Assembly (NCBI GenBank): GCA_026391555.1
Contig: JAPLEB010000093.1
Coordinates: 16,821-80,820, forward strand
Source: Bacteroidia bacterium
Lineage (GTDB): Bacteria; Bacteroidota; Bacteroidia; Bacteroidales; VadinHA17
DNA: 64,000 bases
Direction: 5' to 3'
Position 1 is the stretch's first letter, and each line of letters begins with the position of its first letter. Shown here piece by piece: positions 13,268 through 60,498 of this stretch. The position numbers and the translations under genes were made by a program. The notes under the pieces are model-generated. The model saw only the letters and a program-made list of their open reading frames with translations, did no database searches and was not told where the DNA came from.

Positions 13268-14755
13268 TTACACCGGCATATCTGGTAATGTATAACCTTT
13301 GCTGTAATTATGTTTAACCATCTCAGCAGCAAACTGTTTTGCGTTCATCGGATCAGTCCATTTTTTGTTAAATTTTGGATCGCCATCTGTGATGGTGAAA
13401 TTATCTGAAATACAAATTTTCAAACTTTCAGTATCGCTGATATTAGTGAATTCCATCTTTTCACCATTCCATTCAAGTTCTTTGTTAAGACCCTGGAGTC
13501 GTACAGCAAGAACACCCATAACAACCATTTCGTTAAATGGACCTGCTTGTGAAAAATCAGATTTAGAAAGAACTCTGCTTTCCGGGCTCTCTTTACAAGC
13601 TCTTACCCAGTCCATCTCGTGTTTTCCATCTTCAACCCTGCGTTCTGTTTTAGGAACATTTGGAACACGACCAGACAACAGCCATGGGTCGACGCCATAA
13701 CAACCGCAAATAAGGGTATCTTTTGAACCATGGAAGATAACACCGCCACCACGATTATTCATATTTTTTCCTTCCGGCCAGCCTTTTGGTTTTGGAGGTT
13801 GCAGACCACCATCATACCAGGTAACTACAACCTCAGGGTATTTAATTTTTGAGCCTTTTGGTGCAATTCTTTCGGGATATGTTAATGTAACCATCTGTGC
13901 ATTAGGTGCGCAGTCAGATAAAAGAAGTGTTGAACTGCCCTGAGCTTTGATCGGGTATTGCAATTTCAGACCTTTGAATACCGGGTGAAGAATATGGCAA
14001 GCCATGTCGCCAAGTGCTCCTGTTCCGAAATCCCACCAGCCTCTCCAGTTCCATGGAGTGTATATGCTATTATATGGACGCATCCGGGCCGGGCCTATAA
14101 AAAGATCCCAGTTAAGTGTTTCAGGAACCCATTCACCTTTTGGGACATTTAGTCCTTGTGGCCAGATAGGACGATCAGTAAATGCTTCAACTCTTCTAAT
14201 TTCACCAATCTCACCATTCTGTATCCATTCTGTTGTAAGATTAACTCCTTCTCCAGAAGAACCCTGGTTACCCATTTGAGTTGCAACCTTATATTTTGCA
14301 GCCAGTTTGGTTAATAACCTTGATTCATAGACCGAGTGTGTCAGAGGTTTTTGAACATAGGCATGTTTGCCCATGGTGATAGCATTTGATGCTGCGACGC
14401 AATGCGAATGGTCAGCAGTTGCAACAATAACTGCATCGATAGATTTACCCATTTCATCATACATCTTTCGCCAATCCCAATAAGCTTTTGCATCCGGGTT
14501 TGCAGTAAATACCTTTTTTGCATATCCCCAGTCAACATCGCACAGAGCGATAATATTTTCAGTTGGGGCAACAGCTTTTAAATTTGAATTACCCATACCA
14601 CCAATACCAATAACAGCGATATTCAGCTTGTCGCTGGGGGCCTTGTGGCCAAAGCCACTCATAACTGAGCCAGGAAGTATCGTCAGACCTGCTGCAACAG
14701 TACCGGTTCTTTCAATAAATGACCGTCGTGTAATGTTTTTCGAATTTTCTTTCAT
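13268..14755 (-). CDS. Tat-exported Gfo/Idh/MocA oxidoreductase, probable glycoside 3-dehydrogenase
   Basis: RRSFI Tat motif, IGIGGMG, QKPLTH, WRGWWDFGTGALGDMACH; resembles B. thetaiotaomicron BT2158 from memory; adjacent to DUF1080. Confidence 0.88.
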   Translation of the reverse strand: MKENSKNITRRSFIERTGTVAAGLTILPGSVMSGFGHKAPSDKLNIAVIGIGGMGNSNLKAVAPTENIIALCDVDWGYAKKVFTANPDAKAYWDWRKMYDEMGKSIDAVIVATADHSHCVAASNAITMGKHAYVQKPLTHSVYESRLLTKLAAKYKVATQMGNQGSSGEGVNLTTEWIQNGEIGEIRRVEAFTDRPIWPQGLNVPKGEWVPETLNWDLFIGPARMRPYNSIYTPWNWRGWWDFGTGALGDMACHILHPVFKGLKLQYPIKAQGSSTLLLSDCAPNAQMVTLTYPERIAPKGSKIKYPEVVVTWYDGGLQPPKPKGWPEGKNMNNRGGGVIFHGSKDTLICGCYGVDPWLLSGRVPNVPKTERRVEDGKHEMDWVRACKESPESRVLSKSDFSQAGPFNEMVVMGVLAVRLQGLNKELEWNGEKMEFTNISDTESLKICISDNFTITDGDPKFNKKWTDPMNAKQFAAEMVKHNYSKGYTLPDMPV

Positions 14756-34510: not shown

Positions 34511-36001
34511 CTATTTCACATTCAGCTGCATCTTCGCTTCTGCCTCTTTCAGTTCCAGAACTTTGGTTGTGCCTCCGGTTTCGAGATTTATCCCGTGAGG
34601 TTTATTGGTTTTCCATGAGCCTCCGGTAAAGTCAGGTATATCAATTGATTGCGATCTGTTTGCTACGGACCATTCACTTAGTGGTGCGATTGAGCTCCAG
34701 AGAGCACCGTCGTAGACATTCTCATCAAGAGGCAGGCCATTTCGCAAACAGTCAATCAACCGCCAGTCCATAATGAAGTCCATGCCGCCATGTCCACCGA
34801 CTTTCTTTGCCATTTCCCCTACCCTCTTCACAATTTCAGGAGTATATTTATCCTGTACCTCTTTCATCTCATCATCCTTTAACCAGCTATGCCCCAAGGC
34901 TATACGCTCCTCGGGATACTTCATTGCACCACCGGCAGTACCACTAACAACATGCAGCCTTGAATAGGGCCGAACCGATGAAACATCGTGCTGTATCATT
35001 ATTGTCCTGCCGTTACTGGTTTTTACCAGGGAAGTATTCATATTACCACGGAAGTTTTTATTTGCGTAGGGAGCAAAGAAAGAGTCACCTGCGGCAAGCA
35101 GATTTGCATGTTTCCCCATAGTAAAATCTATTGTCGACATGGAAGTAAGATAATCCATCTTATCGCCACGGTTTATATTCATTATCTGGCAAATAGGCCC
35201 CAGTCCATGTGTCGGATAGAGGTTACCGTTCCGGGTAGCATTCTCTTTCAGACGCCACATATCGGTATAAGCACCATCGGATTGTTTATCATCAAGCGGT
35301 TTCTTGAAGTTATATCCCATAAGGTTGTGAATATAAGCGCCTTCACCATGAACAAGATCACCAAACAAGCCCTGGCGGGCCATATTAAGAGTAAGGAGTT
35401 CGAAGAAATCATAACAGCAGTTTTCAAGCATCATGCAATGCTTTTTGGTTCTTTCCGAAGTCTCCACAAGTTGCCATGCATCATCAATAGTGCGTGCAAT
35501 TGGTACTTCGCAGGCAACATGTTTTCCGTTCTCCATTGCATAAACCGAGATAGGTGTGTGCAATATCCATGGGGTACATGTATAGATAAGATCAAGGTCA
35601 GGAAGCTCCACTAGATTTTTCCAGCTGTTTTCATCGCCAAAAAACTCCCGGGCAGCAGGTCTTCCGATACTTGTGAGGTACTTCTGTGAACCTTCCACTG
35701 CTACCTTTCGGAGATCGCCCAAAGCTGTTATCTCAACACCCTCAATATAGGATAACCGTTTAACGGCTCCGCTTCCCCTGTCGCCCAGACCGATAACACC
35801 AACTCTTACTAAAGGAAGAGCAGGCGCTGCATAACCGCACATATTAAAACGCTGTGAATGAGATTTTTTAACTGATTCCAGAATACCTGCCATATTTGAT
35901 TCGGGTTGTTTTGAAATACAACCGGGTATTAAACCACCAGTCATGGCTCCTGCACCGGCGAATGTTGCTGTCTTTAAAAAATTACGGCGATTACTTGTCA
36001 T
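34511..36001 (-). CDS. Tat-exported NAD-dependent GH109 glycosidase (alpha-N-acetylgalactosaminidase-like, Gfo/Idh/MocA fold)
   Basis: RRNFL Tat motif; GLGDRG, MMLENCCY, YPTHGLGP, GGHGGMD. Confidence 0.88.
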   Translation of the reverse strand: MTSNRRNFLKTATFAGAGAMTGGLIPGCISKQPESNMAGILESVKKSHSQRFNMCGYAAPALPLVRVGVIGLGDRGSGAVKRLSYIEGVEITALGDLRKVAVEGSQKYLTSIGRPAAREFFGDENSWKNLVELPDLDLIYTCTPWILHTPISVYAMENGKHVACEVPIARTIDDAWQLVETSERTKKHCMMLENCCYDFFELLTLNMARQGLFGDLVHGEGAYIHNLMGYNFKKPLDDKQSDGAYTDMWRLKENATRNGNLYPTHGLGPICQIMNINRGDKMDYLTSMSTIDFTMGKHANLLAAGDSFFAPYANKNFRGNMNTSLVKTSNGRTIMIQHDVSSVRPYSRLHVVSGTAGGAMKYPEERIALGHSWLKDDEMKEVQDKYTPEIVKRVGEMAKKVGGHGGMDFIMDWRLIDCLRNGLPLDENVYDGALWSSIAPLSEWSVANRSQSIDIPDFTGGSWKTNKPHGINLETGGTTKVLELKEAEAKMQLNVK

Positions 36002-50205: not shown

Positions 50206-50363
50206 GTGTGCTTTAACATGGCGCTCTGCCATTGTAGCGAAGGATTGCTTCGTTACTTTGCGCAATGACCGTAGTGAAGTGAAACGTTTGGCGATTGTTC
50301 AGTTTTGAACCATTTACCTCTTGTTACGAGTTACGGGCCATAAGCTATAAGCTACAGTATTAA

Positions 50364-50621
50364 CTATTTTTTCTTCTTGAGAAGGAAAAATCCCGCAGCT
50401 CCTGCAACAACAACAGCTCCTGCTATTATGGCTATAGTTGCGGAACTTCCTTTAGCTTCGCTTTTCTCATCCTCAACAGCATAATAGAATGTTGGTTTTG
50501 CATCAGTATCCATATTGACTGTATCTTTCTTTGGTCTGGGCTGCTCCTGTGCAATTGCCATATTCATACCACCAAGAAGAAGGAGCGATGTCATCGAAAA
50601 CACTAAAACTGATTTTTTCAT
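50364..50621 (-). CDS. Small secreted protein with C-terminal TM anchor and basic tail
   Basis: Sec signal (AIA|Q), ~35-aa acidic linker, TM IAIIAGAVVVAGAAGFFLL, KKKK; starts 18 nt after the GT-C stop. Confidence 0.7.
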   Translation of the reverse strand: MKKSVLVFSMTSLLLLGGMNMAIAQEQPRPKKDTVNMDTDAKPTFYYAVEDEKSEAKGSSATIAIIAGAVVVAGAAGFFLLKKKK

Positions 50622-50639
50622 TTTTAAACTTTTTATAAA

Positions 50640-52709
50640 TTATTGAATAGTATTTGCCAGTTCATCATATTTTTCTGCAACGTCGGGGTTTGATTTCCTG
50701 TAAGTATCAGCCAGTGCAACTATTGCAGGCTTATACCGCGGACTCATTGTCAGACACGTTCTGAGTAAAGCCCGGGCCCTCATTATATCACTGTCAATCA
50801 ATAATTCCGACAGTCCGACATATGCATCAAAGTACTTCCTGTCAGCTTCAATAAGTCTTTGGTAATACCTGATAGCCTCATCCGTTTTATTTTGCGACCC
50901 GGCTATGTTTCCAAGGTACATCAGTATCGGCTCAAAATCAGGATTTATCTCTAATCCCTTATTTAAAACCGAGTCTGCCTTCTGATACTGCCCATCGTTA
51001 TATAAAGCTGCTGCAAAATTATAATAAATCATTTCATCACCATCATCAACCAGCAATACCTTCTCAAAGTATTTTATTGCATCCTTGCTCCTGCCTTCAT
51101 TTAAAGCAATATAACCGTAAAAATCATCTTTCGATTTTCGTTCAATAACTGCACAAACCGGAATCCGGTCAGCATATATAATATGTATAGCATTTGTGGG
51201 AGGCCAGTAATTATTCTTTAATTGGTAAGGTGAGATATACCTGTTTGCTACAATGGCATAATCCCAGTCGGACTGGCTTCTTTCTTCATACCTGAAATAT
51301 GATGTTTCAATATCAGGATGAGCGCGAAACAGCCATTTTACAGAATAAGTTGCCTTAACTTTTACAGAGCCGGTAATATTCTTCTCTTTGAGATAATCAA
51401 TCAGCCATTTTGATGCTTCAGTCTGACCGACATAATAATAATCCGTTTCATAATTAGCATAAGCCCCTCGTAATCCTCCAACCAGCTGATTATAATACAA
51501 ATAATAGTATGGATGATTTACGATCATGAACTTAAGAGGATGAACCGATAGTACAGCCAGCAGTGCAACCACACCCCATTTTGAATACTTGTTTTTAACA
51601 CAATCAAAAAAGTAATGAAATCCTATCGCGGCTAATAAAACTATTGCAGGATAGATAAAAAGAAACTGCCTCCAGGAACTGTACAGATTTGATTTATCAT
51701 AAACCACAAAAACAAGGGGAAACAAAACTGTAAAAATTACAAATCCATATAGGACAGTCTTTCCATGATTGAATATAAGCTTTGACAAAAAACTGAATAA
51801 AATCAAACCTGTCAATACAATAAGAGGAATGGTGATTGACATGGATTTAGGAAGGTAGTACCATGGCATATAATCCGACCATTCAACTTTTCCTTCAAAT
51901 ATCTGACGGAAGGTATCCGGAAAATGAGCCATAACATGATAAGATTCGAGAACATTCTTAACGGGACTCTGAAGTGCATAAGGCCATAATAAAATGCTTA
52001 ATAACCAGGATACTATGGAAATCCCGGTTATCCATAAAAGCTTAGTTCTGATTTCAATAAAATCAATTATATTACCTCTCAGATATTTAACCAGGTAGAA
52101 GATAAAAAAGAAAAAGAAGAGATAACAGATCAATAGTAACCCTCCTGCCCTGATGCTGATAGAAAATGCGATACCGGCAGTTAGTAAAATTATATACCGG
52201 GTTGAAATTTTCCTTCCTGAAAACAGGAACTTAAGAGTGAAAAAAATACTTGAAATATAACCAAGCGCGAATGGAATATCCTTCAGGTTATTCTGAGTGT
52301 GACCAATAAAAGTAGGTGAAACAGCAAACAGGATCAGGACAAGAATACCGGCTCTGTAACCGGCGAGCCAAACAGCAAAAAGAGCTGTTAATAAAATAAC
52401 AAGCCACCCTGCGACAGAACTCATAAGGTGACGAAATCCGTATATATCATCAATATTAAACCAATTGATTAATATCGTGACCAGATTATCGTATGACTGG
52501 CCATAATATTTCAGATTAGTAATGGGGGTATTCAGTGCAGACTGATCATTACCATGAGTTGCAAAATAGTTATAAACTGAGACAGAATGATTGTAATGCA
52601 GAACTTCATCGCAAGTGATACCGGCATCCCTGCTTGTGAGCAGCATCAGAAAAAGAAGAATTGCGGAAGAAAAATAAAAGATATATTTTAGCCTTGCCAC
52701 TTTCATCAT
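50640..52709 (-). CDS. GT-C (PMT/ArnT-like) membrane glycosyltransferase with C-terminal TPRs
   Basis: DE motif (ITCDE) after TM1, NNLKDIPF, ~11-13 TM, ETDYY, several TPR repeats. Confidence 0.78.
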   Translation of the reverse strand: MMKVARLKYIFYFSSAILLFLMLLTSRDAGITCDEVLHYNHSVSVYNYFATHGNDQSALNTPITNLKYYGQSYDNLVTILINWFNIDDIYGFRHLMSSVAGWLVILLTALFAVWLAGYRAGILVLILFAVSPTFIGHTQNNLKDIPFALGYISSIFFTLKFLFSGRKISTRYIILLTAGIAFSISIRAGGLLLICYLFFFFFIFYLVKYLRGNIIDFIEIRTKLLWITGISIVSWLLSILLWPYALQSPVKNVLESYHVMAHFPDTFRQIFEGKVEWSDYMPWYYLPKSMSITIPLIVLTGLILFSFLSKLIFNHGKTVLYGFVIFTVLFPLVFVVYDKSNLYSSWRQFLFIYPAIVLLAAIGFHYFFDCVKNKYSKWGVVALLAVLSVHPLKFMIVNHPYYYLYYNQLVGGLRGAYANYETDYYYVGQTEASKWLIDYLKEKNITGSVKVKATYSVKWLFRAHPDIETSYFRYEERSQSDWDYAIVANRYISPYQLKNNYWPPTNAIHIIYADRIPVCAVIERKSKDDFYGYIALNEGRSKDAIKYFEKVLLVDDGDEMIYYNFAAALYNDGQYQKADSVLNKGLEINPDFEPILMYLGNIAGSQNKTDEAIRYYQRLIEADRKYFDAYVGLSELLIDSDIMRARALLRTCLTMSPRYKPAIVALADTYRKSNPDVAEKYDELANTIQ

Positions 52710-53635
52710 TTTTCCAGACCGCCGTCATAAAACTTCCTCACAAAATAGACCGGACGGTTTTGTGATTCCTTATAGCTTCTGTAAACATATTCGCCCAGGA
52801 TACCCAAAAAAACCAACTGAATGGATCCGAGAAAATAAATACTGAGAAGAGTGGATGACCACCCGATAACCGCGAAGCCATAAGCTTTTGCTATCAGAAC
52901 ATAAATTCCTGCGCTCATAAAAACAAGAGTGCCTATTATCCCAAGCATCAGACAGAAGCGAATTGGAAATCTCGAGAAGGAAAAAATGGCATCTGCAGCC
53001 AGGACAAACAACTTGCGAATGCTCATCTTAGAGACACCTTTGAAGCGGTCTTCTCTGACGAATTCGACATATCCCTGTTTGAAACCGATAAATGTTCTCA
53101 GCCCCGGCAGATACCTGACTTTTTCTTTCATTGAAAGAATTGCGTCAACGGCTTTCCGCTTCATCATCGAGTAATTTCCTGAATTCTCCATGTTTTTTAT
53201 TTCGCCAATATGCTTAAAAAGAAGATTAAACAAAATTGCATACAGGTTGCGGCCCTTATTACCTTTTCTCCCGATCTTTTTACCACTGATAATATCAAAA
53301 TCTTCTTCTTTTATCTTCCTGTACATCTCGGAAAGCAGCTCCGGAGGATCCTGAAGATCACCGTCCATCATTGCAACAAAATCTCCCTTAGCATATTCCA
53401 ATCCGGCTGTATATGCAGCCTGGTGACCAAAATTCTTCGATAATGACAGAATTTTTATCTTCCTGTTTTGTTGCTGCCATTGCAGAATCTTATTAAGACT
53501 CGTGTCAGTGCTCCCATCGTCAACGAAAATCACCTCATAATCAGGGATGAATGATTCAAGAGCTGAAATAGTCCTTTTCACCAGCTCATCAATCAGTTTC
53601 TCTTCATTAAATATAGGAATTACCAATGAAAGCAT
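52706..53635 (-). CDS. GT2 polyprenyl-phosphate glycosyltransferase (GtrB-like)
   Basis: VIPIFNEE, FVDDGSTD, NFGHQAA, MDGDLQDPPE, two C-terminal TM, GEYVYR...RPVY. Confidence 0.9.
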   Translation of the reverse strand: MLSLVIPIFNEEKLIDELVKRTISALESFIPDYEVIFVDDGSTDTSLNKILQWQQQNRKIKILSLSKNFGHQAAYTAGLEYAKGDFVAMMDGDLQDPPELLSEMYRKIKEEDFDIISGKKIGRKGNKGRNLYAILFNLLFKHIGEIKNMENSGNYSMMKRKAVDAILSMKEKVRYLPGLRTFIGFKQGYVEFVREDRFKGVSKMSIRKLFVLAADAIFSFSRFPIRFCLMLGIIGTLVFMSAGIYVLIAKAYGFAVIGWSSTLLSIYFLGSIQLVFLGILGEYVYRSYKESQNRPVYFVRKFYDGGLEK

Positions 53636-53657
53636 AACAGGATTTATAATTCCAAAA

Positions 53658-54872
53658 TTATTTTACTGGTTGAAGTCGTGCAAGTGCAAATTCGGCTTCG
53701 TCCTTTAACTCAGTATTTGATACAAGATTTTTAATAGCAGGAACAGAATAATCAGAACCCATCCAGCTTAATTCGCGGAGTAAAAGTTTCTTTGCTTCAA
53801 CTGTAGCCTCATTGCTGGTAAGAACTTTTACCATCATCTTCTCAAGATTCAATAACCCCTGTTCATCACCTGCAAGATTACGGATATGGCTCTGCACATA
53901 ACTGAAATATTTGGTGCTTTTTGCTATATCATAACTCCCAACATTTGCCATGGCCTCATCAAGTTTCATTTCCTTGAAGTCGGGACGTAGAACAACCCCT
54001 GCAGCACTTGGGAAATCCCATGGTATGGGTTGAGTTACATCGCCGGTAACAGCCCATTCTGCACCTCGCTGCAATGTTACAATAAATCCTACGCACTGCA
54101 TTGCAGGGCCACCGCCTTCATCAGCATGCCCCATGGCAGTATGGAATATCCTGCCTTTCTCATAACTGATAACCATAAGCATAGGCTCGTCTCTCCTTGT
54201 ACCTCCGCCTTTAGCAGAATCAGCAAAAGCCGTTGCCAGTATCTGCATGTTTTTAGCAGGTCCCCGAAGCTGACTGTATAACTCATCATTCCCATGCAAC
54301 CATCTTACAGGCAAACCTTTGGTTATAGGATGGTCAGTAATTCTTGCTCTGACAAGAAATTCCCTTCTTTTACCATGAGAACCACCTTTGCCAGCCGCTG
54401 TGTCTATAACCAGCTGATTATTTTTGTAATAAACATAAGGTCCGTCTTTTTCTGTGCGGTTTCCCCATCCGCCAAGTCCTATCATTTCGTTATATTCTTT
54501 CCATGCCGGAAAAGAATTATCGGCAGCATGGTAAACCACAACTCCACCGCCGTTTTTAACATATTCAAGGAATGCAGCGTTTGTTTTTTCTGACCATGAG
54601 TCGCCGTTATAATCCAGAACAATCAATTTATATTTTGAAAAATCAGGATTGAAAGTATTCATATCTCCGCCTTTTTCAGGAGTGATCAGGATATCCGCTG
54701 TAAACATTCCTGTTTCGTCAAGTATCTGTTTCAAAACCGGTGAACTTGCTTTCCAGTTATGATTATTCTGACCTGTGATTATCAATGTTTTGTAAACTGC
54801 CTCATTTTTACAGGCAGATACAAAGGTTAATAAACCTGCTACAAATAATAATAGTAAATATTGTTTTTTCAT
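53658..54872 (-). CDS. ThuA-like domain lipoprotein with C-terminal helical (HEAT-like) extension
   Basis: SAC lipobox; TGQNNHNW, GGGVVVYHAA, HPITKGLP, DELY, GRIFHTAMGH, QRGAEW. Confidence 0.82.
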   Translation of the reverse strand: MKKQYLLLLFVAGLLTFVSACKNEAVYKTLIITGQNNHNWKASSPVLKQILDETGMFTADILITPEKGGDMNTFNPDFSKYKLIVLDYNGDSWSEKTNAAFLEYVKNGGGVVVYHAADNSFPAWKEYNEMIGLGGWGNRTEKDGPYVYYKNNQLVIDTAAGKGGSHGKRREFLVRARITDHPITKGLPVRWLHGNDELYSQLRGPAKNMQILATAFADSAKGGGTRRDEPMLMVISYEKGRIFHTAMGHADEGGGPAMQCVGFIVTLQRGAEWAVTGDVTQPIPWDFPSAAGVVLRPDFKEMKLDEAMANVGSYDIAKSTKYFSYVQSHIRNLAGDEQGLLNLEKMMVKVLTSNEATVEAKKLLLRELSWMGSDYSVPAIKNLVSNTELKDEAEFALARLQPVK

Positions 54873-54884
54873 TTTTCTTACTGA

Positions 54885-56198
54885 TTAAACTGTTGGTAAT
54901 GTCCATGGTTGACGGTAAGGACGGCTCAGCATGCGGCCGGCCCTTGGATTGCCGATTATCTCTTCCTTATCCGGATCCCATTTAATTGTCTGGCCGGTTG
55001 TCATGGCAATTTCACCCAATAAGGCAACAGATATTGCCCTGTAAGCTACTTCTATGGGAGCAATTGTTGGCTTTCCAGAGCGGACACAATCGATGAAGTT
55101 CTGCCAATGGTTCTCGCTTTTATATAACTTAATCTCATTCTCACCGATAACTTCATCGAGAATTTTAGGATCAGAAGCGGAAATTTTGTTTCCCCTGTCA
55201 ACATGAACCCAGCCCAGGTCGCCATGCCATGTAGTTCCCATGCCAAGAGGAAGTCGTGATGCATTTGCTACCCGCATTTCAATGCCGTTAGCATATTTGC
55301 ATAGGAAATCATATTCAACGGGTACATTATAAATTCCTTCAACAGGGTAAACACCTGCTCCTGAAATTTCAACCGGACCAGTATGTTCAAGTCCTGCACC
55401 CCAGTTTGCGATATCAACATGGTGCCCTGCCCAATCGGTTAACTGCCCCCCTGAATAATCAAGTATCCAGCGCCAATCCCAATGCGAAACACCGCGATAA
55501 GGTACTTTTAAAGCTGGTCCAAGCCACATCTCCCAGTTCAGTTCAGCAGGAACTTCCTGAATTGGCGGAGTACCTATGCATTTATTTCCGTCAGGTAGTC
55601 CTACTTCAATATATTTTATCTTTCCAACTCTGCCATTAATAGCAAGTTCGGCTCCATGGTGAAAATTGGGTAGAGAGCGTTGCCAGCTGCCAGTCTGCCA
55701 AATAATGTTGTTCTTTTTAACTGTGTTGACAATAGTCTGACCATCTTTTATTGTCCGGCAAATAGGCTTCTCACCATATACATTAAATTTCTTGTTTGCG
55801 ACTTCCGAATAAATGATCCCGTGCCAGTGATCGGGTAATGCTAAAGAAACAGCATCCGGTTTTTCCTTTTCGAGGAATTCGCGGTAATCACCATAAGTCC
55901 GGCAATCACTGTTCTTATTTGCCTGGTTAACTGTCTCTTTGGCTTTTGCCAGATGAAGGGCGTCCACATCGCATACTGCAACAAATTGCACGGCATCTTT
56001 GAGTCTTAAAAAGTCTCTCATATTGCTCATTCCCTGCGATCCGGTACCGATAGCGCCCATTACAATACGATCGCTGGGAGCAATCCTCCCTCCCATTCCA
56101 AACGCTGACGAAGGAATGATTTGCGGAAGCACGATAGCCCCTGCTACAACTGCCGCCGATCGTTTAACAAATTCTCTTCTTGATGATTTGTTTGCCAT
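54885..56198 (-). CDS. Tat-exported Gfo/Idh/MocA oxidoreductase
   Basis: RREFV Tat motif; IGTGSQG, PDHWH, GEKP, QTGSWQRS, DYSGGQLTDWAGHH. Confidence 0.9.
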   Translation of the reverse strand: MANKSSRREFVKRSAAVVAGAIVLPQIIPSSAFGMGGRIAPSDRIVMGAIGTGSQGMSNMRDFLRLKDAVQFVAVCDVDALHLAKAKETVNQANKNSDCRTYGDYREFLEKEKPDAVSLALPDHWHGIIYSEVANKKFNVYGEKPICRTIKDGQTIVNTVKKNNIIWQTGSWQRSLPNFHHGAELAINGRVGKIKYIEVGLPDGNKCIGTPPIQEVPAELNWEMWLGPALKVPYRGVSHWDWRWILDYSGGQLTDWAGHHVDIANWGAGLEHTGPVEISGAGVYPVEGIYNVPVEYDFLCKYANGIEMRVANASRLPLGMGTTWHGDLGWVHVDRGNKISASDPKILDEVIGENEIKLYKSENHWQNFIDCVRSGKPTIAPIEVAYRAISVALLGEIAMTTGQTIKWDPDKEEIIGNPRAGRMLSRPYRQPWTLPTV

Positions 56199-56241
56199 TT
56201 TGATTTTATTTTAGTTATGCTATAATATAATAACTTATATA

Positions 56242-57576
56242 TTAAACCTTTACTGATGTTCCGGGGATAGGTGTTTCGAAAACCATATCAACAGGGCCTA
56301 ACTCAATTTTAGCCGGTCCAAGGTCCATATCAGATTTTAAAATCTCATCCCATGATATTGACAGGCCGGTATAGGCCGCGGTCCTTCCCATAATGGCTGT
56401 AAGTGTCGAAAGGGCTGTTTGTTCTGCTTCATTAACATAATTGCCAGTACGGATAGCATGAACAAGGTGCATGTGCTCCTGGACATAAGGAGGAATCTTT
56501 AAAGCGTTCATAGGATTTCCGTTTTCATCTTTAGGATATTCAAACTGCCATTTTACATTTCCCTTCAAATCCCAGATTGTGTTGGCACAATTGGTATAAC
56601 CTTCAGACCCCACAATAACTTCTCCCGTTCCGTTAGCGCAGCTATCTATCTGACGGCACATACTATGCGAGCTGACGCCATTCCCATAATCGAAGTCGAT
56701 GCTAAAAAAGTCATACTGATCACCGGTAACTCTGCGATGACGGCCGCCATAGCCGATTGCCTTTTCGGGATGCTTACCCATGAACCAGTTGATAACATCT
56801 ATATTATGTACGTGTGTGTCAAGGATATGATCACCGCTTAACCAGCAGAAATTATTCCAGTTACGGATCATGTATTCCATATCGTTCCATCCCTTTTCCC
56901 GCTCACGGAACCATACATGATCCTGGTTCCAGAATGCTTTGGCAGAGGTTATTGTGCCAATTGCACCGTTCACTACCTGTTTATATGTCTCTATATAATC
57001 TTCCTGATGACGTCTCTGAGTTCCTGTGACAACACATAATCCGATAGCTTCGGCTTTTTTCCCGGAAGTTATAACTGAACGTATTCCAACAGGATCTACT
57101 GCTACCGGTTTTTCCAGGAAGGTATGTTTGTTATTCGAAACAGCCTCAAGAAAATGCTCAGGGCGGAACTGAGGTGGAGTTGCAAGTATAACAACATCAA
57201 CATCAGGAAGAGCCATCAGCTTTTTATAAGCATCAAACCCGACAAAGCAGTTTTCGGCAGGTATTGGAAGATTGAACGAAGCAAATCTTTCGCGGCAGGC
57301 ATCAACCTTATCCTGGAAAACATCGGCAAGGGCTATAACCTCCAGGTCGGGCCCTGCACTTATAAAATTAATGGCTGCTCCGGTACCTCTTGCTCCGGCG
57401 CCAACAAGGCCGGCCCTGAGTTTCTTACCTTTTGGGGCACCATTTAAAATAGGAGGAAGACCAAGCGCTTCAATATCCGGTTTCCTCTTGCATGCTGCTA
57501 TCAATGCCCCTGCACCGGCTAATCCCATACCTGCAAGCGCTGTTTTTCCAATGAATTTTCTTCTGTCGATATTCAT
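56242..57576 (-). CDS. Tat-exported (lipo)protein Gfo/Idh/MocA oxidoreductase
   Basis: RRKFI Tat motif plus IAAC lipobox; VGAGARGTGA, TPPQFRP, EKPVAVD, GTQRRH, SGDHILDTHVHNID. Confidence 0.9.
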   Translation of the reverse strand: MNIDRRKFIGKTALAGMGLAGAGALIAACKRKPDIEALGLPPILNGAPKGKKLRAGLVGAGARGTGAAINFISAGPDLEVIALADVFQDKVDACRERFASFNLPIPAENCFVGFDAYKKLMALPDVDVVILATPPQFRPEHFLEAVSNNKHTFLEKPVAVDPVGIRSVITSGKKAEAIGLCVVTGTQRRHQEDYIETYKQVVNGAIGTITSAKAFWNQDHVWFREREKGWNDMEYMIRNWNNFCWLSGDHILDTHVHNIDVINWFMGKHPEKAIGYGGRHRRVTGDQYDFFSIDFDYGNGVSSHSMCRQIDSCANGTGEVIVGSEGYTNCANTIWDLKGNVKWQFEYPKDENGNPMNALKIPPYVQEHMHLVHAIRTGNYVNEAEQTALSTLTAIMGRTAAYTGLSISWDEILKSDMDLGPAKIELGPVDMVFETPIPGTSVKV

Positions 57577-57626
57577 ATATTCTGTTCCTTCGTTTGTCGA
57601 TTGTCGTTTTTCGTTCGCCTTTTGTC

Positions 57627-59159
57627 TTATTTAATTGTGCTGTCTGCTTCGCATACTACCCTGAATCCTACATCGATACAATCGGAATACCACCATATAC
57701 TTTTCGGCATTTGGGGATCGGTCACCAGCCATGCTTTTGTTTTTGTGAAATCGCGGGCCGCACTCCTTACATCTTTTGCATCGCTTTTGAACGACCCGCC
57801 GCGAATTACATGCTCTTGTCCGGTTACAGGTCCTTCAGGATTGACCATTTCTGATGAATCGGCTTTATAAGCATCGGGAGAATAATAATCAAAACAAAAC
57901 TCTGACACATTTCCCGACATATTCTTCAATCCAAATGGATTCTCTTTTACTGACACAGGCTCCAAAGTCCTGGAAGAACTATTCAAATTATAAACTACCA
58001 ATGAAGCGATATTTGAAGTATCCGGTCCAAATATCTTCTTTAACAAACCAGATGATGTGAACTCTTTTGGATTTCCCTCAAAGAAATAAGGAGTTTCAGT
58101 TCCACCCCTGCATGCATATTCCCATTCAGCCTCAGTAGGTAGCCGGAATTTTTTACCTGTAACCTTCGACAACCACAGGCAATAAACATTTGCTGCATGC
58201 CACGACATAGTTATTGCTGGCCTGGCGCCTTTGCCCCAGCCCTGGTCGGGAGCGCCCCATGGAGGAGTTGCTCCACTGATAGCATCCACATTCTTTTTGC
58301 TGACCACCTGGCCTTCTGTTCTTCCCTGCGAACCAGTTGCCCTGAAGAAGGCTAAGTATTCATCCCATGTAACCTCAGTTTTGGCCATCCAGAATTTCGA
58401 TACGGTCACTTTCCGGACAGGACCCTCATCGGGTTTGCGTAATGGCTCACCATCAGGACTTCCCATGTTAAATGTTCCTTCCGGGATTGCCACCATTTCA
58501 AATGACACATTTGAGCCCGGTATCATTTCATTGAAGTTTTCAAATTTTTCAACTTTGGCAGATTCAGTGAAAATAGCCTTATTTGCTGTAATCGTAACAC
58601 CAAAACTTGTGTCATGAGCATGTATGGCATTCCTGTCGTAATGCCCGACATTAAGGTGACAGTTGATGCAATTTAACGGTTCCCTGGATGTCGTATAGAA
58701 AAGGTGGGCATTGCCGCCATTGACGGATAATTTAACCGGGAAAAGGTTCTGATGGCATTCGAGACATGATTTTTCATAAACGAATCCTTTTGCGTTTTCA
58801 AGTAATTTTTTCTCCTGCCAGTTTAACTTTGCACTGTCTTTTAAGAAATACCCATAGACATCCTTGATCCCATGTTTTGCTTTTGCAAGAAGGTATCCAT
58901 GACCTTCGGGAGGCAGATGACAATCAGCACAATGGGTAATGCTTCCTGAGTGATTATTATAATGCGTTGACAATTTCCAGCTCTGATCTGCCTGTGGGTG
59001 AATATGGCACGATACACAATATTTATCGGAAGAAGTGTAAGATACAACTGATTTCCCCGATTTCAAAAAGAGGAGACCTAAAATGAAGCCCACAATAATA
59101 AACCAGACTTTTGTCCTGACCCTTATAGAAGCCCGGCTACGGAAATTCCTTAAATTCAT
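57627..59159 (-). CDS. Fusion of a membrane-anchored tetraheme NapC/NirT-type cytochrome c and an FGE/SUMF1-like domain
   Basis: N-terminal TM, then CVSCH, CADCH, CLECH, CINCH; then FEMVAIPEGTFNMGS, RLPTEAEWEYACRG, NPFGLKNMSGNVSE, RGGSF, GFRVV. Confidence 0.85.
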   Translation of the reverse strand: MNLRNFRSRASIRVRTKVWFIIVGFILGLLFLKSGKSVVSYTSSDKYCVSCHIHPQADQSWKLSTHYNNHSGSITHCADCHLPPEGHGYLLAKAKHGIKDVYGYFLKDSAKLNWQEKKLLENAKGFVYEKSCLECHQNLFPVKLSVNGGNAHLFYTTSREPLNCINCHLNVGHYDRNAIHAHDTSFGVTITANKAIFTESAKVEKFENFNEMIPGSNVSFEMVAIPEGTFNMGSPDGEPLRKPDEGPVRKVTVSKFWMAKTEVTWDEYLAFFRATGSQGRTEGQVVSKKNVDAISGATPPWGAPDQGWGKGARPAITMSWHAANVYCLWLSKVTGKKFRLPTEAEWEYACRGGTETPYFFEGNPKEFTSSGLLKKIFGPDTSNIASLVVYNLNSSSRTLEPVSVKENPFGLKNMSGNVSEFCFDYYSPDAYKADSSEMVNPEGPVTGQEHVIRGGSFKSDAKDVRSAARDFTKTKAWLVTDPQMPKSIWWYSDCIDVGFRVVCEADSTIK

Positions 59160-59253
59160 TTTCTCCGGAAAAGTTCAATTAAAACTTTCTAAAGTTAATT
59201 GTTTACCGGATTTGGTGACAAAAATTATTGTCTTTTTTAATTAAATTTAACAA

Positions 59254-60186
59254 TCAGAACCTTTTTACATAACCATGACAATATGGAACCTTACCGTTGT
59301 TGAAATAATAATCCTGGTGACAGGCTTCTGCCGGATAGAATTCTGAGGCTTTGGTCACAGTAGTTTCAATTTTATAACCTTTAGTTTTCAGAATGTTCAG
59401 ATCTTTTTCGGCAATATCCTTCTGATCATCATTCATATAGAATATTTCTGACCTGTACTGGTCGCCAATGTCCGGTCCCTGTCTGCCAACCTGGGTTGGA
59501 TCGTGTATCTCAAGGAACAATTTAAGAAGCTTTTCATAAGATATTTTATCAGGGTCATAGACTATCTTAACCGCCTCAGCATGGCCCGTGTTTCCTGTAC
59601 AGACCTCTTTATAAGTCGGATTTTTTACCTGCCCTCCTGTATAACCCGAAGTTACAGAGATTACGCCCGGGGCTTTCTGAAGAAAATATTCAACACCCCA
59701 GAAACATCCGCCGGCAAAAATCGCTGTGCCATATCTCCCTGCTTCGAGTTGAGCAGGTACAAAATCGAGTGAAACGGAATTTACACAATGCCGGATGTTC
59801 TTTTCAGTGAGTCTCTCCCCTGTGAAAACATGACCAAGATGAGCGCCACAGTTGGCACATTCGATTTCGGTTCTCAATCCATCTGCATCCGGAAACCTGT
59901 TAACAGCTCCTTTTATTTCATTATCAAAACTCGGCCATCCGCAATCTGATTCAAATTTGTCGGATGAATAATAAAGCGCCGCTCCGCACTTTTTACAGAC
60001 ATAAGTACCTTTTTCCTTAAAATTTGTAAATTTTCCTGTAAATGGAGATTCGGTACCTTTATTATTAATGACATACGATTCCACTTTTGTGAGATCGTAG
60101 TATTGTAATTTTTCCTGTGAATAAGATTCTTCGCTCATACTGCCAAAGTAAATAAATAATATTAATATAGCATATCTAATATTCAT
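59254..60186 (-). CDS. msrAB: Peptide methionine sulfoxide reductase MsrB-MsrA fusion with signal peptide
   Basis: MsrB: KGTE, CKKC, GWPSF, CANC, HLGHVF, RHCVNS; MsrA: GGCFWG, GHAE, HQDY. Confidence 0.93.
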   Translation of the reverse strand: MNIRYAILILFIYFGSMSEESYSQEKLQYYDLTKVESYVINNKGTESPFTGKFTNFKEKGTYVCKKCGAALYYSSDKFESDCGWPSFDNEIKGAVNRFPDADGLRTEIECANCGAHLGHVFTGERLTEKNIRHCVNSVSLDFVPAQLEAGRYGTAIFAGGCFWGVEYFLQKAPGVISVTSGYTGGQVKNPTYKEVCTGNTGHAEAVKIVYDPDKISYEKLLKLFLEIHDPTQVGRQGPDIGDQYRSEIFYMNDDQKDIAEKDLNILKTKGYKIETTVTKASEFYPAEACHQDYYFNNGKVPYCHGYVKRF

Positions 60187-60498
60187 AACACGCTTTTTAT
60201 GTTAATATTTATTACAAATTTGAAACCAAAAAGTTTCTTTACCAGAACTTTTTAACATATTTATTTGTTCCTAATATCAGATTATGCATAGATTAATAAT
60301 TTGCATCTGTTCAGTATCAAATATAAAGAAGCAGGAAGTCAGAAGTCGTGAGCTAATAGTAGAAAGACTTCGGTCTTCTGGCTTATTAGTTAAAATTTTT
60401 GCAATTAAACGAAATATTTGTTTAAATTTTATTTTAACACAAAGATTGTTTTTTCAATGAAAAGTTTATTTTTGTAAATAATTAATATAGTATCTGGT

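Follow-up and report, generated by a model that had tools for sequence, protein, structure and literature searches.

A tetrahaem cytochrome fused to an FGE-like domain in a Bacteroidia genome: a candidate flavinylated electron outlet for periplasmic Gfo/Idh/MocA oxidoreductases

Periplasmic enzymes of the Gfo/Idh/MocA family that are exported by the twin-arginine translocation (Tat) system catalyse the first step of a glycan breakdown route that has broad specificity and was recognised only recently. In the BT2156-2159 pathway of Bacteroides, the AL1-4 pathway of Alistipes and the glucose-fructose oxidoreductase of Zymomonas, the exported protein holds tightly bound NAD(P), and this cofactor is thought to be recycled on a second sugar in a redox-neutral manner. 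For BT2158, tightly bound NAD(P) and an "as yet unidentified sugar" as the acceptor have been proposed; of cytochrome c-dependent dehydrogenases it is argued that the short electron transport chain of Bacteroides thetaiotaomicron "probably precludes" them (Liu et al., 2021, PMC8121099). NAD is likewise bound in AL3 (Nasseri et al., bioRxiv 10.1101/2024.03.25.586180), and both texts acknowledge as unknown which acceptor re-oxidises these NAD-bound periplasmic Gfo enzymes (PMC8121099; bioRxiv 10.1101/2024.03.25.586180). Here we describe an operon from a Bacteroidia bacterium of the order Bacteroidales (VadinHA17; assembly GCA_026391555.1) that may provide such an acceptor. It lies in a 64,000-nt stretch of contig JAPLEB010000093.1 (positions 16,821 to 80,820, forward strand), hereafter called the window. 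The first gene of the operon fuses a tetrahaem cytochrome domain of the NapC/NrfH type to a domain with the fold of the formylglycine-generating enzyme (FGE), and it is followed by genes for two Tat-exported Gfo/Idh/MocA proteins, here named GfoA and GfoB, and for a ThuA-domain lipoprotein.

Two further groups of described systems are relevant. In LacABC, an FAD-dependent glucoside 3-dehydrogenase, and in the three-subunit membrane-bound sugar dehydrogenases, which consist of a catalytic subunit, a small Tat subunit and a cytochrome c subunit, a flavin and a multihaem cytochrome link 3-keto-sugar formation to respiration, as we propose here. LacABC and ThuAB are called cytochrome c-dependent (PMC8121099). 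The catalytic subunit of LacABC is a GMC-type FAD enzyme, whereas in the present case the enzyme would be an NAD(P)-bound Rossmann protein and the flavin would sit on a separate FGE-fold domain. The second group comprises the carriers flavinylated by ApbE (NqrC/RnfG FMN_bind proteins, PplA, NosR and flavinylated reductases), which are exported, bear a flavinylation motif, act as extracytosolic relays between one-electron and two-electron steps, and have genes that cluster with apbE and membrane cytochromes (Meheust et al., 2021, PMC8238504).

On the reading that we consider probable, the FGE-like domain of the fusion is a flavinylated electron-transfer module that re-oxidises the NAD(P)H held by GfoA and passes the electrons via the four haems to menaquinone. 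A preliminary description of this DNA, made from the letters alone, had proposed a conduit from periplasmic sugar oxidation to the quinone pool in which the FGE-like domain is a scaffold for the oxidoreductases. Comparative genomics backs the outline of that proposal; the FGE-like domain, however, is very probably a redox module and not a mere scaffold.

The evidence for this change is a loop in the FGE-like domain. D292-A-I-S-G-A-T298 is an exact match to the ApbE motif D-x-x-[S/T]-G-A-[S/T], to whose last residue FMN is joined (PMC12052999). The loop had been missed in the preliminary description and is a new observation. Of 618 candidate stretches of genome sequence, 617 encode relatives, and the best 80 were analysed as loci, with tblastn of the window proteins to read their gene neighbourhoods. 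Bacteroidota, Planctomycetota, Verrucomicrobiota and Acidobacteriota are the main phyla represented, and one further locus is from a bin with the label Clostridia. In an alignment of 53 family members, which includes a few diverse ones from a whole-library phmmer search that was itself dominated by multi-repeat FGE proteins, the loop takes the form D-A-[VI]-[ST]-x-[PA]-[TS] and marks the family more clearly than any other feature (Table 1). Of the 80 locus proteins, 71 have the relaxed pattern; nine are truncated or have near variants of it. Within the window's own assembly (3.5 Mb in 164 contigs, 96% complete), the strict motif occurs eight times in 2850 open reading frames (ORFs), against 3.7 expected from composition, and two of these eight ORFs are the two fusion paralogues. 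The flavinylation-type loop is lacking in PvdO, in the other FGE-fold paralogues of this genome (on contigs C40, C69 and C89) and in true FGE, which reads DAVVPEAP at the same place. As a loop does exist in true FGE, it was inherited from the fold, and the novelty lies in the Ser/Thr pattern.

The distribution of apbE is consistent with this assignment. The genome has one apbE gene (C127:75975-76994), whose product bears a lipoprotein signal. Among the 80 loci, apbE lies inside the cluster in 24, with seven examples confirmed by Pfam (212-259 bits), while a rough estimate of chance co-occurrence is below one locus of 80. In four of the 80 (L039, L041, L065 and L068) apbE adjoins the FGE-like gene and no Gfo gene is there. 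The gene order in L119, a metagenome contig from the reciprocal survey described below, is apbE, NapC-FGE, GfoA, GfoA. The four pairs without Gfo suggest that the client of ApbE is the FGE-like protein rather than GfoA. GfoA was also considered as the ApbE target and rejected, as its sole T-G-A stretch is a Rossmann motif ending in Ala and the Gfo-less apbE pairs exist. Taken together, the FGE-like proteins resemble the known carriers in being exported and motif-bearing, in the clustering of their genes with apbE and membrane cytochromes, and in the relay role proposed for them. They differ in fold, as the known carriers have the FMN_bind fold and the candidate is FGE/C-type-lectin-like.

The fusion itself, which the preliminary description had read from a 510-aa ORF with an N-terminal transmembrane (TM) helix and four CxxCH motifs, proved exact to the base in the ORF list and the motif placement. 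A Pfam scan found both expected domains in this one ORF: Cytochrom_NNT (PF03264) at residues 18-174 (E 1.8e-27, 96.6 bits, cut-off 24.1) and FGE-sulfatase (PF03781) at residues 221-471 (E 2e-44, 152.6 bits, cut-off 23.3). An AF2 model based on the 53-row alignment has a mean pLDDT of 77.3, with the FGE blocks mostly above 90 from residue 200 onwards. Within the domain, confidence is lowest at the predicted flavinylation loop, with residues 278-286 and 292-294 below 50, as is expected of a surface loop. Foldseek returned human FGE and PvdO as the top matches of the modelled domain (human FGE: E 3e-18, TM-score 0.67-0.75 normalised to the target), in agreement with a fold shared with FGE, PvdO, PorK and GldK (PF03781).

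The domain lacks the residues of a sulfatase activator. A phmmer alignment to the FGE of T. curvata (82 bits) ends at residue 458, and the segment RGGSFKSDAKDVRSAAR at residues 453-469 contains no Cys, residues 456-465 of the window protein included. No Cys occurs at residues 456-461 in any of the 53 family members; position 456 is S, G, A, T or N and position 461 is A, P, K, S or G. The two catalytic, copper-binding Cys of FGE presumably map to 456 and 461, ahead of the R-C/S-A-A-R segment. Judged by its sequence, the domain is neither a formylglycine-generating enzyme nor a copper enzyme. On this presumed mapping, the earlier suggestion that it is probably not a sulfatase activator holds for the whole family.

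The gene most closely associated with the FGE-like gene is that of GfoA. A GfoA-type gene directly adjoins it, on either side and on the same strand, in 60 of the 80 loci. It lies directly downstream in 57 loci (53 of the 71 whose sequence extends 1.5 kb or more in that direction) and directly upstream in four. An RR Tat motif is present in 50 of 51 GfoA-type ORFs adjoining an FGE-like gene. A gene for a Tat-exported AP_endonuc_2 protein, a xylose-isomerase-like TIM barrel, is found in 19 of the 80 loci and one for a DUF1080 3-keto-disaccharide hydrolase in six; the same two protein types accompany the Bacteroides/Alistipes 3-keto-glycoside pathway. In the other 20 loci no Gfo gene is adjacent; 16 of them were scanned with Pfam, and the neighbours there are mostly unrelated housekeeping genes. 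GfoB and ThuA accompany the fusion and GfoA only in the six closest loci, L001-L006, and are lineage-specific additions. The conserved core is the pair of fusion or FGE-like gene and GfoA. Of the co-occurrence that had been proposed as a check, the part concerning GfoA holds across phyla, whereas that concerning GfoB and ThuA is confined to these six loci. In a reciprocal survey, a GfoA profile was run on metagenome contigs. It gave 80 loci, of which 57 have at least 1 kb of upstream sequence, and an FGE-like gene lies directly upstream of GfoA in 33 of the 57. One flavo-cytochrome may serve several dehydrogenases, because GfoA-type genes also occur in tandem arrays. In L119 (1452-7320), where the fusion has the loop DAVSGPT, two GfoA genes stand in tandem; L170 and L173 each have three tandem GfoA-type genes and no FGE-like gene in reach.

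The FGE-like domain is associated with c-type haem in more than one way. Sixteen of the 80 loci encode full-length NapC-type tetrahaem fusions, and 13 encode proteins with one or two CxxCH motifs in an N-terminal PSCyt1 ("Planctomycete cytochrome C") domain, which Pfam confirmed in the three that were scanned (L044, L046 and L066). The remaining 51 have no haem motifs and mostly plain signal peptides, with L009, L013, L019 and L025 being 5'-truncated or ambiguous. A quick maximum-likelihood tree built on 78 rows of the FGE-like domain groups the NapC-type fusions in a single clade (SH-aLRT 99). The 13 PSCyt1 fusions all fall into the other main clade, in which four state changes or more are required by well-supported branches. 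By the Rosetta-stone argument, the joining of two unrelated c-type cytochromes to this domain in different lineages suggests that the domain exchanges electrons with haem.

The arrangement is not rare. A word-indexed search with the fusion found relatives in 7695 of 8000 scored candidates at E<=1e-3. Among the 120 matches listed, the proteins are 491-513 aa long, 78-87% identical to the fusion and all have PF03781 and PF03264, and they are named "formylglycine-generating enzyme", "sulfatase modifying factor 1" or "cytochrome c nitrite reductase small subunit". The fusion is thereby widespread in databases under FGE/SUMF1 or NrfH names. The preliminary description knew of no account of the arrangement, and in our full-text literature searches, too, neither the fusion nor any flavinylated FGE-like protein turned up. 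The terms FGE, sulfatase, SUMF, DUF323, Gfo, NapC and NrfH do not occur in the main texts of PMC8238504 and bioRxiv 10.1101/2024.03.13.584918; larger supplementary tables might list the family.

The cytochrome domain compares closely with NrfH, NapC, CymA and cM552. It has the N-terminal TM anchor (a hydrophobic stretch at about residues 14-40), four CxxCH motifs in the same order and the Cytochrom_NNT match, and it would likewise trade electrons with the quinone pool. The anchor together with the c-type haem domain implies that the fusion is exposed to the periplasm. All 20 fusion proteins that were aligned share the four CxxCH motifs as well as H54, H66, H152, H173, K93 and D100. In a phmmer alignment to Desulfovibrio NrfH (2j7a_C), K93 and D100 pair with K82 and D89, the menaquinol-site residues of NrfH. 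The same alignment shows CVSCHIH at haem 1 where NrfH has CTSCHIM, as had been noted before. His occupies the position of this Met in all 20 fusions, which read CxxCH-[IV]-H in place of the CxxCHxM of NrfH. The four extra invariant His point to haems that are all bis-His ligated, with a ligand from a partner being superfluous. On these grounds the domain resembles an NrfH-type module that reacts with quinone, has all-His ligation and does not need the ligand of a partner reductase. It differs from the NrfH/NapC family by the additional 300-aa FGE-fold domain, by the lack of a reductase partner gene and by the proposed direction, which is quinone reduction. The cM552 protein of nitrifiers reportedly runs in this direction. 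Scores against the NCBIfam equivalogs are below cut-off (TIGR03153, NrfH, 73 against 134 bits; TIGR02161, 53 against 311; TIGR02162, 68 against 478), and the same applies by a wide margin to all the NCBIfam equivalogs (NrfH, NapC, TorC, GldK, PvdO, EgtB and BT_2158) for the locus proteins.

The genomic context is in accordance with a role outside nitrite and nitrate reduction. Neither nap nor nrfA is present in the window, where the preliminary description had reported no nap, nrf or nir reductases, and neither was found in the whole assembly. The only NrfA-like signal of the assembly is a 30-bit Cytochrom_C552 match in a 785-aa ORF with eight CxxCH motifs (C148:162-2519, + strand). GfoA adjoins the fusion in 15 of the 16 full-length NapC-type loci and none of the 16 has a reductase gene (nrfA/nap), a setting different from the nrfA/nap or random contexts that had been named as the counter-case. 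The assembly contains cytochrome bd and a CcsBA-type haem lyase, and COX1, the marker of haem-copper oxidases, gave no match in it. Besides the window gene, it has two NapC-like genes. The one at C113:29951-31234 is a NapC-FGE fusion with FGE-sulfatase and the loop DAISGAT, cut by the contig end. It belongs to a cluster (C113:26353-31234; L095:4357-9235) with genes for a GfoA-type Tat lipoprotein 51% identical to GfoA, a Tat-exported AP_endonuc_2 TIM barrel and a type I phosphodiesterase. The cluster is followed by ORFs that, from their N-termini only, were named glpD- and glpK-like. The other, at C75:14549-15130 (L096:2550-3131), matches Cytochrom_NNT with 95.5 bits and has four CxxCH motifs before the contig ends after 194 aa. 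Its N-terminus resembles those of the L010/L067-type fusions, and it is probably a third fusion whose FGE part was not assembled. By blastp the genome has about 12 Gfo-like ORFs, of which only the two GfoA-type ones adjoin a fusion.

From these observations we infer the following mechanism. GfoA would fold, with NAD(P) tightly bound, before Tat exports it from the cytoplasm. The fusion would be inserted by its N-terminal helix and receive its four c-type haems from CcsBA in the periplasm, where the lipoprotein ApbE would attach one FMN to T298 in the DAISGAT loop. GfoA would then oxidise a hydroxyl of a sugar or glycoside, probably to a 3-keto sugar, because AP_endonuc_2 and DUF1080 genes accompany the cluster. 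NAD(P)H donates a hydride and haems take up single electrons, which calls for a converter between two-electron and one-electron transfer. We propose a flavin for this step since a hydride donor cannot reduce haems directly: NAD(P)H bound to GfoA would pass its hydride to FMN, which would release the electrons one at a time. Through the four haems these would reach the NrfH-like quinone site (K93/D100), where menaquinone would be reduced, and the menaquinol would be re-oxidised by cytochrome bd or fumarate reductase. The direction is suggested by the potentials of NAD(P)H (-320 mV) and menaquinone (about -74 mV), and it fits the lack of a haem-copper oxidase match and of a soluble cytochrome c route. 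In aerobic Planctomycetota, Verrucomicrobiota and Acidobacteriota, the PSCyt1-fused or stand-alone module would presumably feed soluble cytochrome c. A prediction of the complex of the FGE-like domain (residues 195-510) with mature GfoA (31-444) had an ipSAE of 0.00 in two runs made without controls, and it speaks neither for nor against binding.

A number of observations weigh against this mechanism. The strict [ST]GA[ST] occurs in the loop in only 12 of the 80 loci. Position 297 is P in 39 of the 53 aligned sequences, with R-P or G-P in place of the canonical G-A, a variant with Pro at the penultimate position for which there is no described ApbE substrate; G-to-A and A-to-V changes in the motif halve flavinylation (PMC12052999). 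The DAVVPEAP of true FGE indicates that conservation of the loop is partly fold-related. The apbE of this genome lies on a separate contig with other likely clients, and apbE is not in 56 of the 80 loci, that of the window included. In the reciprocal survey, 24 of the 57 GfoA genes have no adjacent FGE-like gene. Two of these (L119 and L155) belong to an FGE cluster as its second GfoA copy, and the remaining 22 have no FGE-like gene in reach, several being GfoA plus TIM barrel pairs or tandem GfoA triplets; in gene order, the pairing of GfoA with the FGE-like gene is strong, not obligatory. A GfoA search of longer proteins returned one match, which has no FGE domain, and no single-chain FGE-Gfo protein, which is weak evidence. 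A control search found no FGE-sulfatase match in B. thetaiotaomicron, which runs the BT2158 pathway, and the module is therefore not required for that pathway. Finally, NapC/NrfH proteins normally oxidise quinol.

The last point bears on the direction of electron flow. The same complex could work in reverse, the NapC-type domain oxidising menaquinol and the haems and FMN reducing the cofactor of GfoA, a 3-keto sugar or another periplasmic oxidant. Such a complex would act as the quinol dehydrogenase that NrfH, NapC and CymA are established to be, and its quinol-site residues are conserved. Menaquinol (about -74 mV) would, however, be a poor reductant for NAD(P)+ (-320 mV), and the PSCyt1 fusions of aerobes better fit donation to a cytochrome c chain. 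The published pathway does require a reductive 3-ketoglucose step, but that reduction runs on NADH from the same cycle and needs no outside donor (bioRxiv 10.1101/2024.03.25.586180). We consider reversed flow unlikely.

Alternatively, a flavinylated FGE-like domain could itself be a catalyst, an oxidase or dehydrogenase acting on a small molecule or on the product of GfoA, the latter being a mere pathway neighbour. Redox catalysts with the FGE fold do exist, namely FGE and PvdO (a dihydropyoverdine dehydrogenase in NCBIfam); the four loci that pair the FGE-like gene with apbE have no Gfo gene, and in 20 of the 80 loci no Gfo gene is adjacent. The catalytic Cys pair of FGE, on the presumed mapping, is nevertheless absent family-wide, no substrate pocket residues were identified, and the gene adjoins one particular Gfo subfamily across four phyla, which makes this a doubtful explanation.

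We regard it as improbable that the domain is cofactor-free and serves as a scaffold for docking, or as a carbohydrate-binding domain, by which the oxidoreductases are kept at the cytochrome. Several FGE-fold proteins are structural, for example PorK/GldK, and the complex could in principle use another electron route. A scaffold would, however, leave the hydride of NAD(P)H without the converter that the haems require, and the conserved flavinylation-type loop and the apbE clustering without an explanation. To judge from the ApbE motif at 292-298 and from apbE in 24 of the 80 loci, a flavinylated redox module is a better reading of the FGE-like domain than a passive scaffold.

An ordinary NrfH/NapC reductase subunit or sulfatase-maturing FGE brought about by a chance fusion, as the database names (nitrite reductase small subunit, SUMF1, FGE) and the 73 bits to TIGR03153 (NrfH) might suggest, is hardly credible, given that every NCBIfam score is far beneath its cut-off, that the genome has neither nrfA nor nap and its three NapC-like genes are all of the fusion type (two of them being cut by contig ends and one showing no FGE domain), that GfoA and not a reductase adjoins nearly all full-length NapC-type fusions and that the catalytic Cys are missing.

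Returning to the flavinylated module, we give about even weight to a broader version of it, in which the FGE fold represents a new class of ApbE-flavinylated carriers that, together with GfoA, forms widespread respiratory periplasmic sugar dehydrogenases in four phyla, the NAD(P) being recycled by the flavin and the outlet being menaquinone (NapC-type fusion) in anaerobes or cytochrome c (PSCyt1 fusion or stand-alone protein) in aerobes. The main contrast with the Bacteroides/Alistipes pathway and the Zymomonas enzyme would be this respiratory flavo-cytochrome outlet.

The features of the operon and of the loop are collected in Table 1. As first described, two Tat-exported Gfo/Idh/MocA proteins and a ThuA lipoprotein follow the fusion at 12-50 nt spacing, which is confirmed by ORFs, signals and Pfam: the successive gaps in the order fusion, GfoA, GfoB, ThuA are 50, 43 and 12 nt. 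A consensus scan of 50300-60400 gave 21 promoter and six terminator sites, against 27.8 and 8.8 in shuffled sequences, Bacteroidota promoters being outside the consensus. The scan placed no terminator-like site in the intergenic gaps of the operon, and its sole site inside the operon (57173-57157) falls within gfoA.

Table 1. Coordinates in the window of the operon genes and the motifs of the fusion, and conservation of the predicted flavinylation loop in the 53-sequence alignment.
Feature	Position	Strand	Description
Fusion gene	57627..59159	-	510 aa; TM anchor, tetrahaem domain ~18-174, linker, FGE fold ~205-505
GfoA gene	56242..57576	-	444 aa; Tat-exported lipoprotein, Gfo/Idh/MocA family
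GfoB gene	54885..56198	-	437 aa; Tat-exported Gfo/Idh/MocA protein
ThuA gene	53658..54872	-	404 aa; ThuA-domain lipoprotein
Haem c motifs, span	58656..59018	-	CVSCH, CADCH, CLECH, CINCH
CxxCH 1	59004-59018	-	residue 48
CxxCH 2	58917-58931	-	residue 77
CxxCH 3	58752-58766	-	residue 132
CxxCH 4	58656-58670	-	residue 164
Codons of D292-A-I-S-G-A-T298	58266..58286	-	predicted ApbE flavinylation motif; T298 = predicted FMN site
Loop position	292		D, 53/53
Loop position	293		A, 45/53
Loop position	294		V or I, 48/53
Loop position	295		S or T, 48/53
Loop position	296		G 25, R 22
Loop position	297		P 39, A 14; 53/53
Loop position	298		T 47, S 6; 53/53
Position	301		Y, W or F, 53/53

In Pfam, GfoA and GfoB each match GFO_IDH_MocA (PF01408) and C-terminal domains of the family. 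GfoA starts with RRKF, followed by the lipobox LIAAC. Its G59, G61, G64/G66 and E155-K156-P157, corresponding to the Rossmann GxGxxG and the EKP motif, are invariant or nearly so in 50 sequences, and its best match in the Protein Data Bank (PDB) is an inositol dehydrogenase with 42 bits. GfoB has the N-terminus SRREFVK and scores 16.8 for the Tat signal TIGR01409 (cut-off 16.7), and its nearest PDB chains are 8tdf and 8tdh. Against BT_2158_fam (NF058561, cut-off 750), GfoB scores 130 and GfoA 28 bits. By these scores both proteins are relatives of the BT_2158-type glycoside 3-dehydrogenases and not members of that group, GfoA belonging to a different subfamily and GfoB being distantly related to the BT_2158/AL3 type. 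The ThuA protein matches Pfam ThuA at residues 30-252 (85.6 bits), has the lipobox VSAC and aligns with PDB 4e5v over residues 27-301 (348 bits). Beyond 4e5v it has a C-terminal extension of about 100 aa (~302-404), which has no Pfam match and looks helical-repeat-like by eye. GfoB and ThuA together are reminiscent of the ThuAB pair, and their spacing, which suggests co-transcription, is the basis for supposing that they may share the flavo-cytochrome outlet.

A GT2 glycosyltransferase gene starts 22 nt beyond thuA and overlaps a gene for a 689-aa multi-TM protein with C-terminal TPR repeats (together 50640-53635, - strand), an order after ThuA that is kept in L001-L003. GT2 and GT39 genes are present on the Alistipes fosmid with AL1-5 (Nasseri et al., bioRxiv 10.1101/2024.03.25.586180). 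On the other side, 94 nt upstream of the fusion gene and on the same strand, lies msrAB (59254-60186, - strand), which encodes fused SelR and PMSR domains (MsrB-MsrA) with a signal peptide. MsrAB was considered as an electron client of the cytochrome and rejected; it is probably unrelated to the fusion, because the synteny is limited to L001 and L003 among the 80 loci. The window has two further Gfo/Idh/MocA genes, at 34511-36001 (-) and 13268-14755 (-), one with a GH109 C-terminal domain and one with GFO_IDH_MocA_C2. Neither adjoins an FGE-like gene.

If the flavinylated module is confirmed, it would supply the missing electron outlet for periplasmic 3-keto-glycoside pathways, and sugar oxidation in the periplasm would become respiratory and energy-yielding. 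FGE would be a new fold among the substrates of ApbE, and thousands of annotations as "formylglycine-generating enzyme", "SUMF1" or "NrfH" would need correction. The fusion would also represent a NapC/NrfH module that acts as a quinone reductase and is dedicated to carbon metabolism instead of nitrogen or sulfur respiration.

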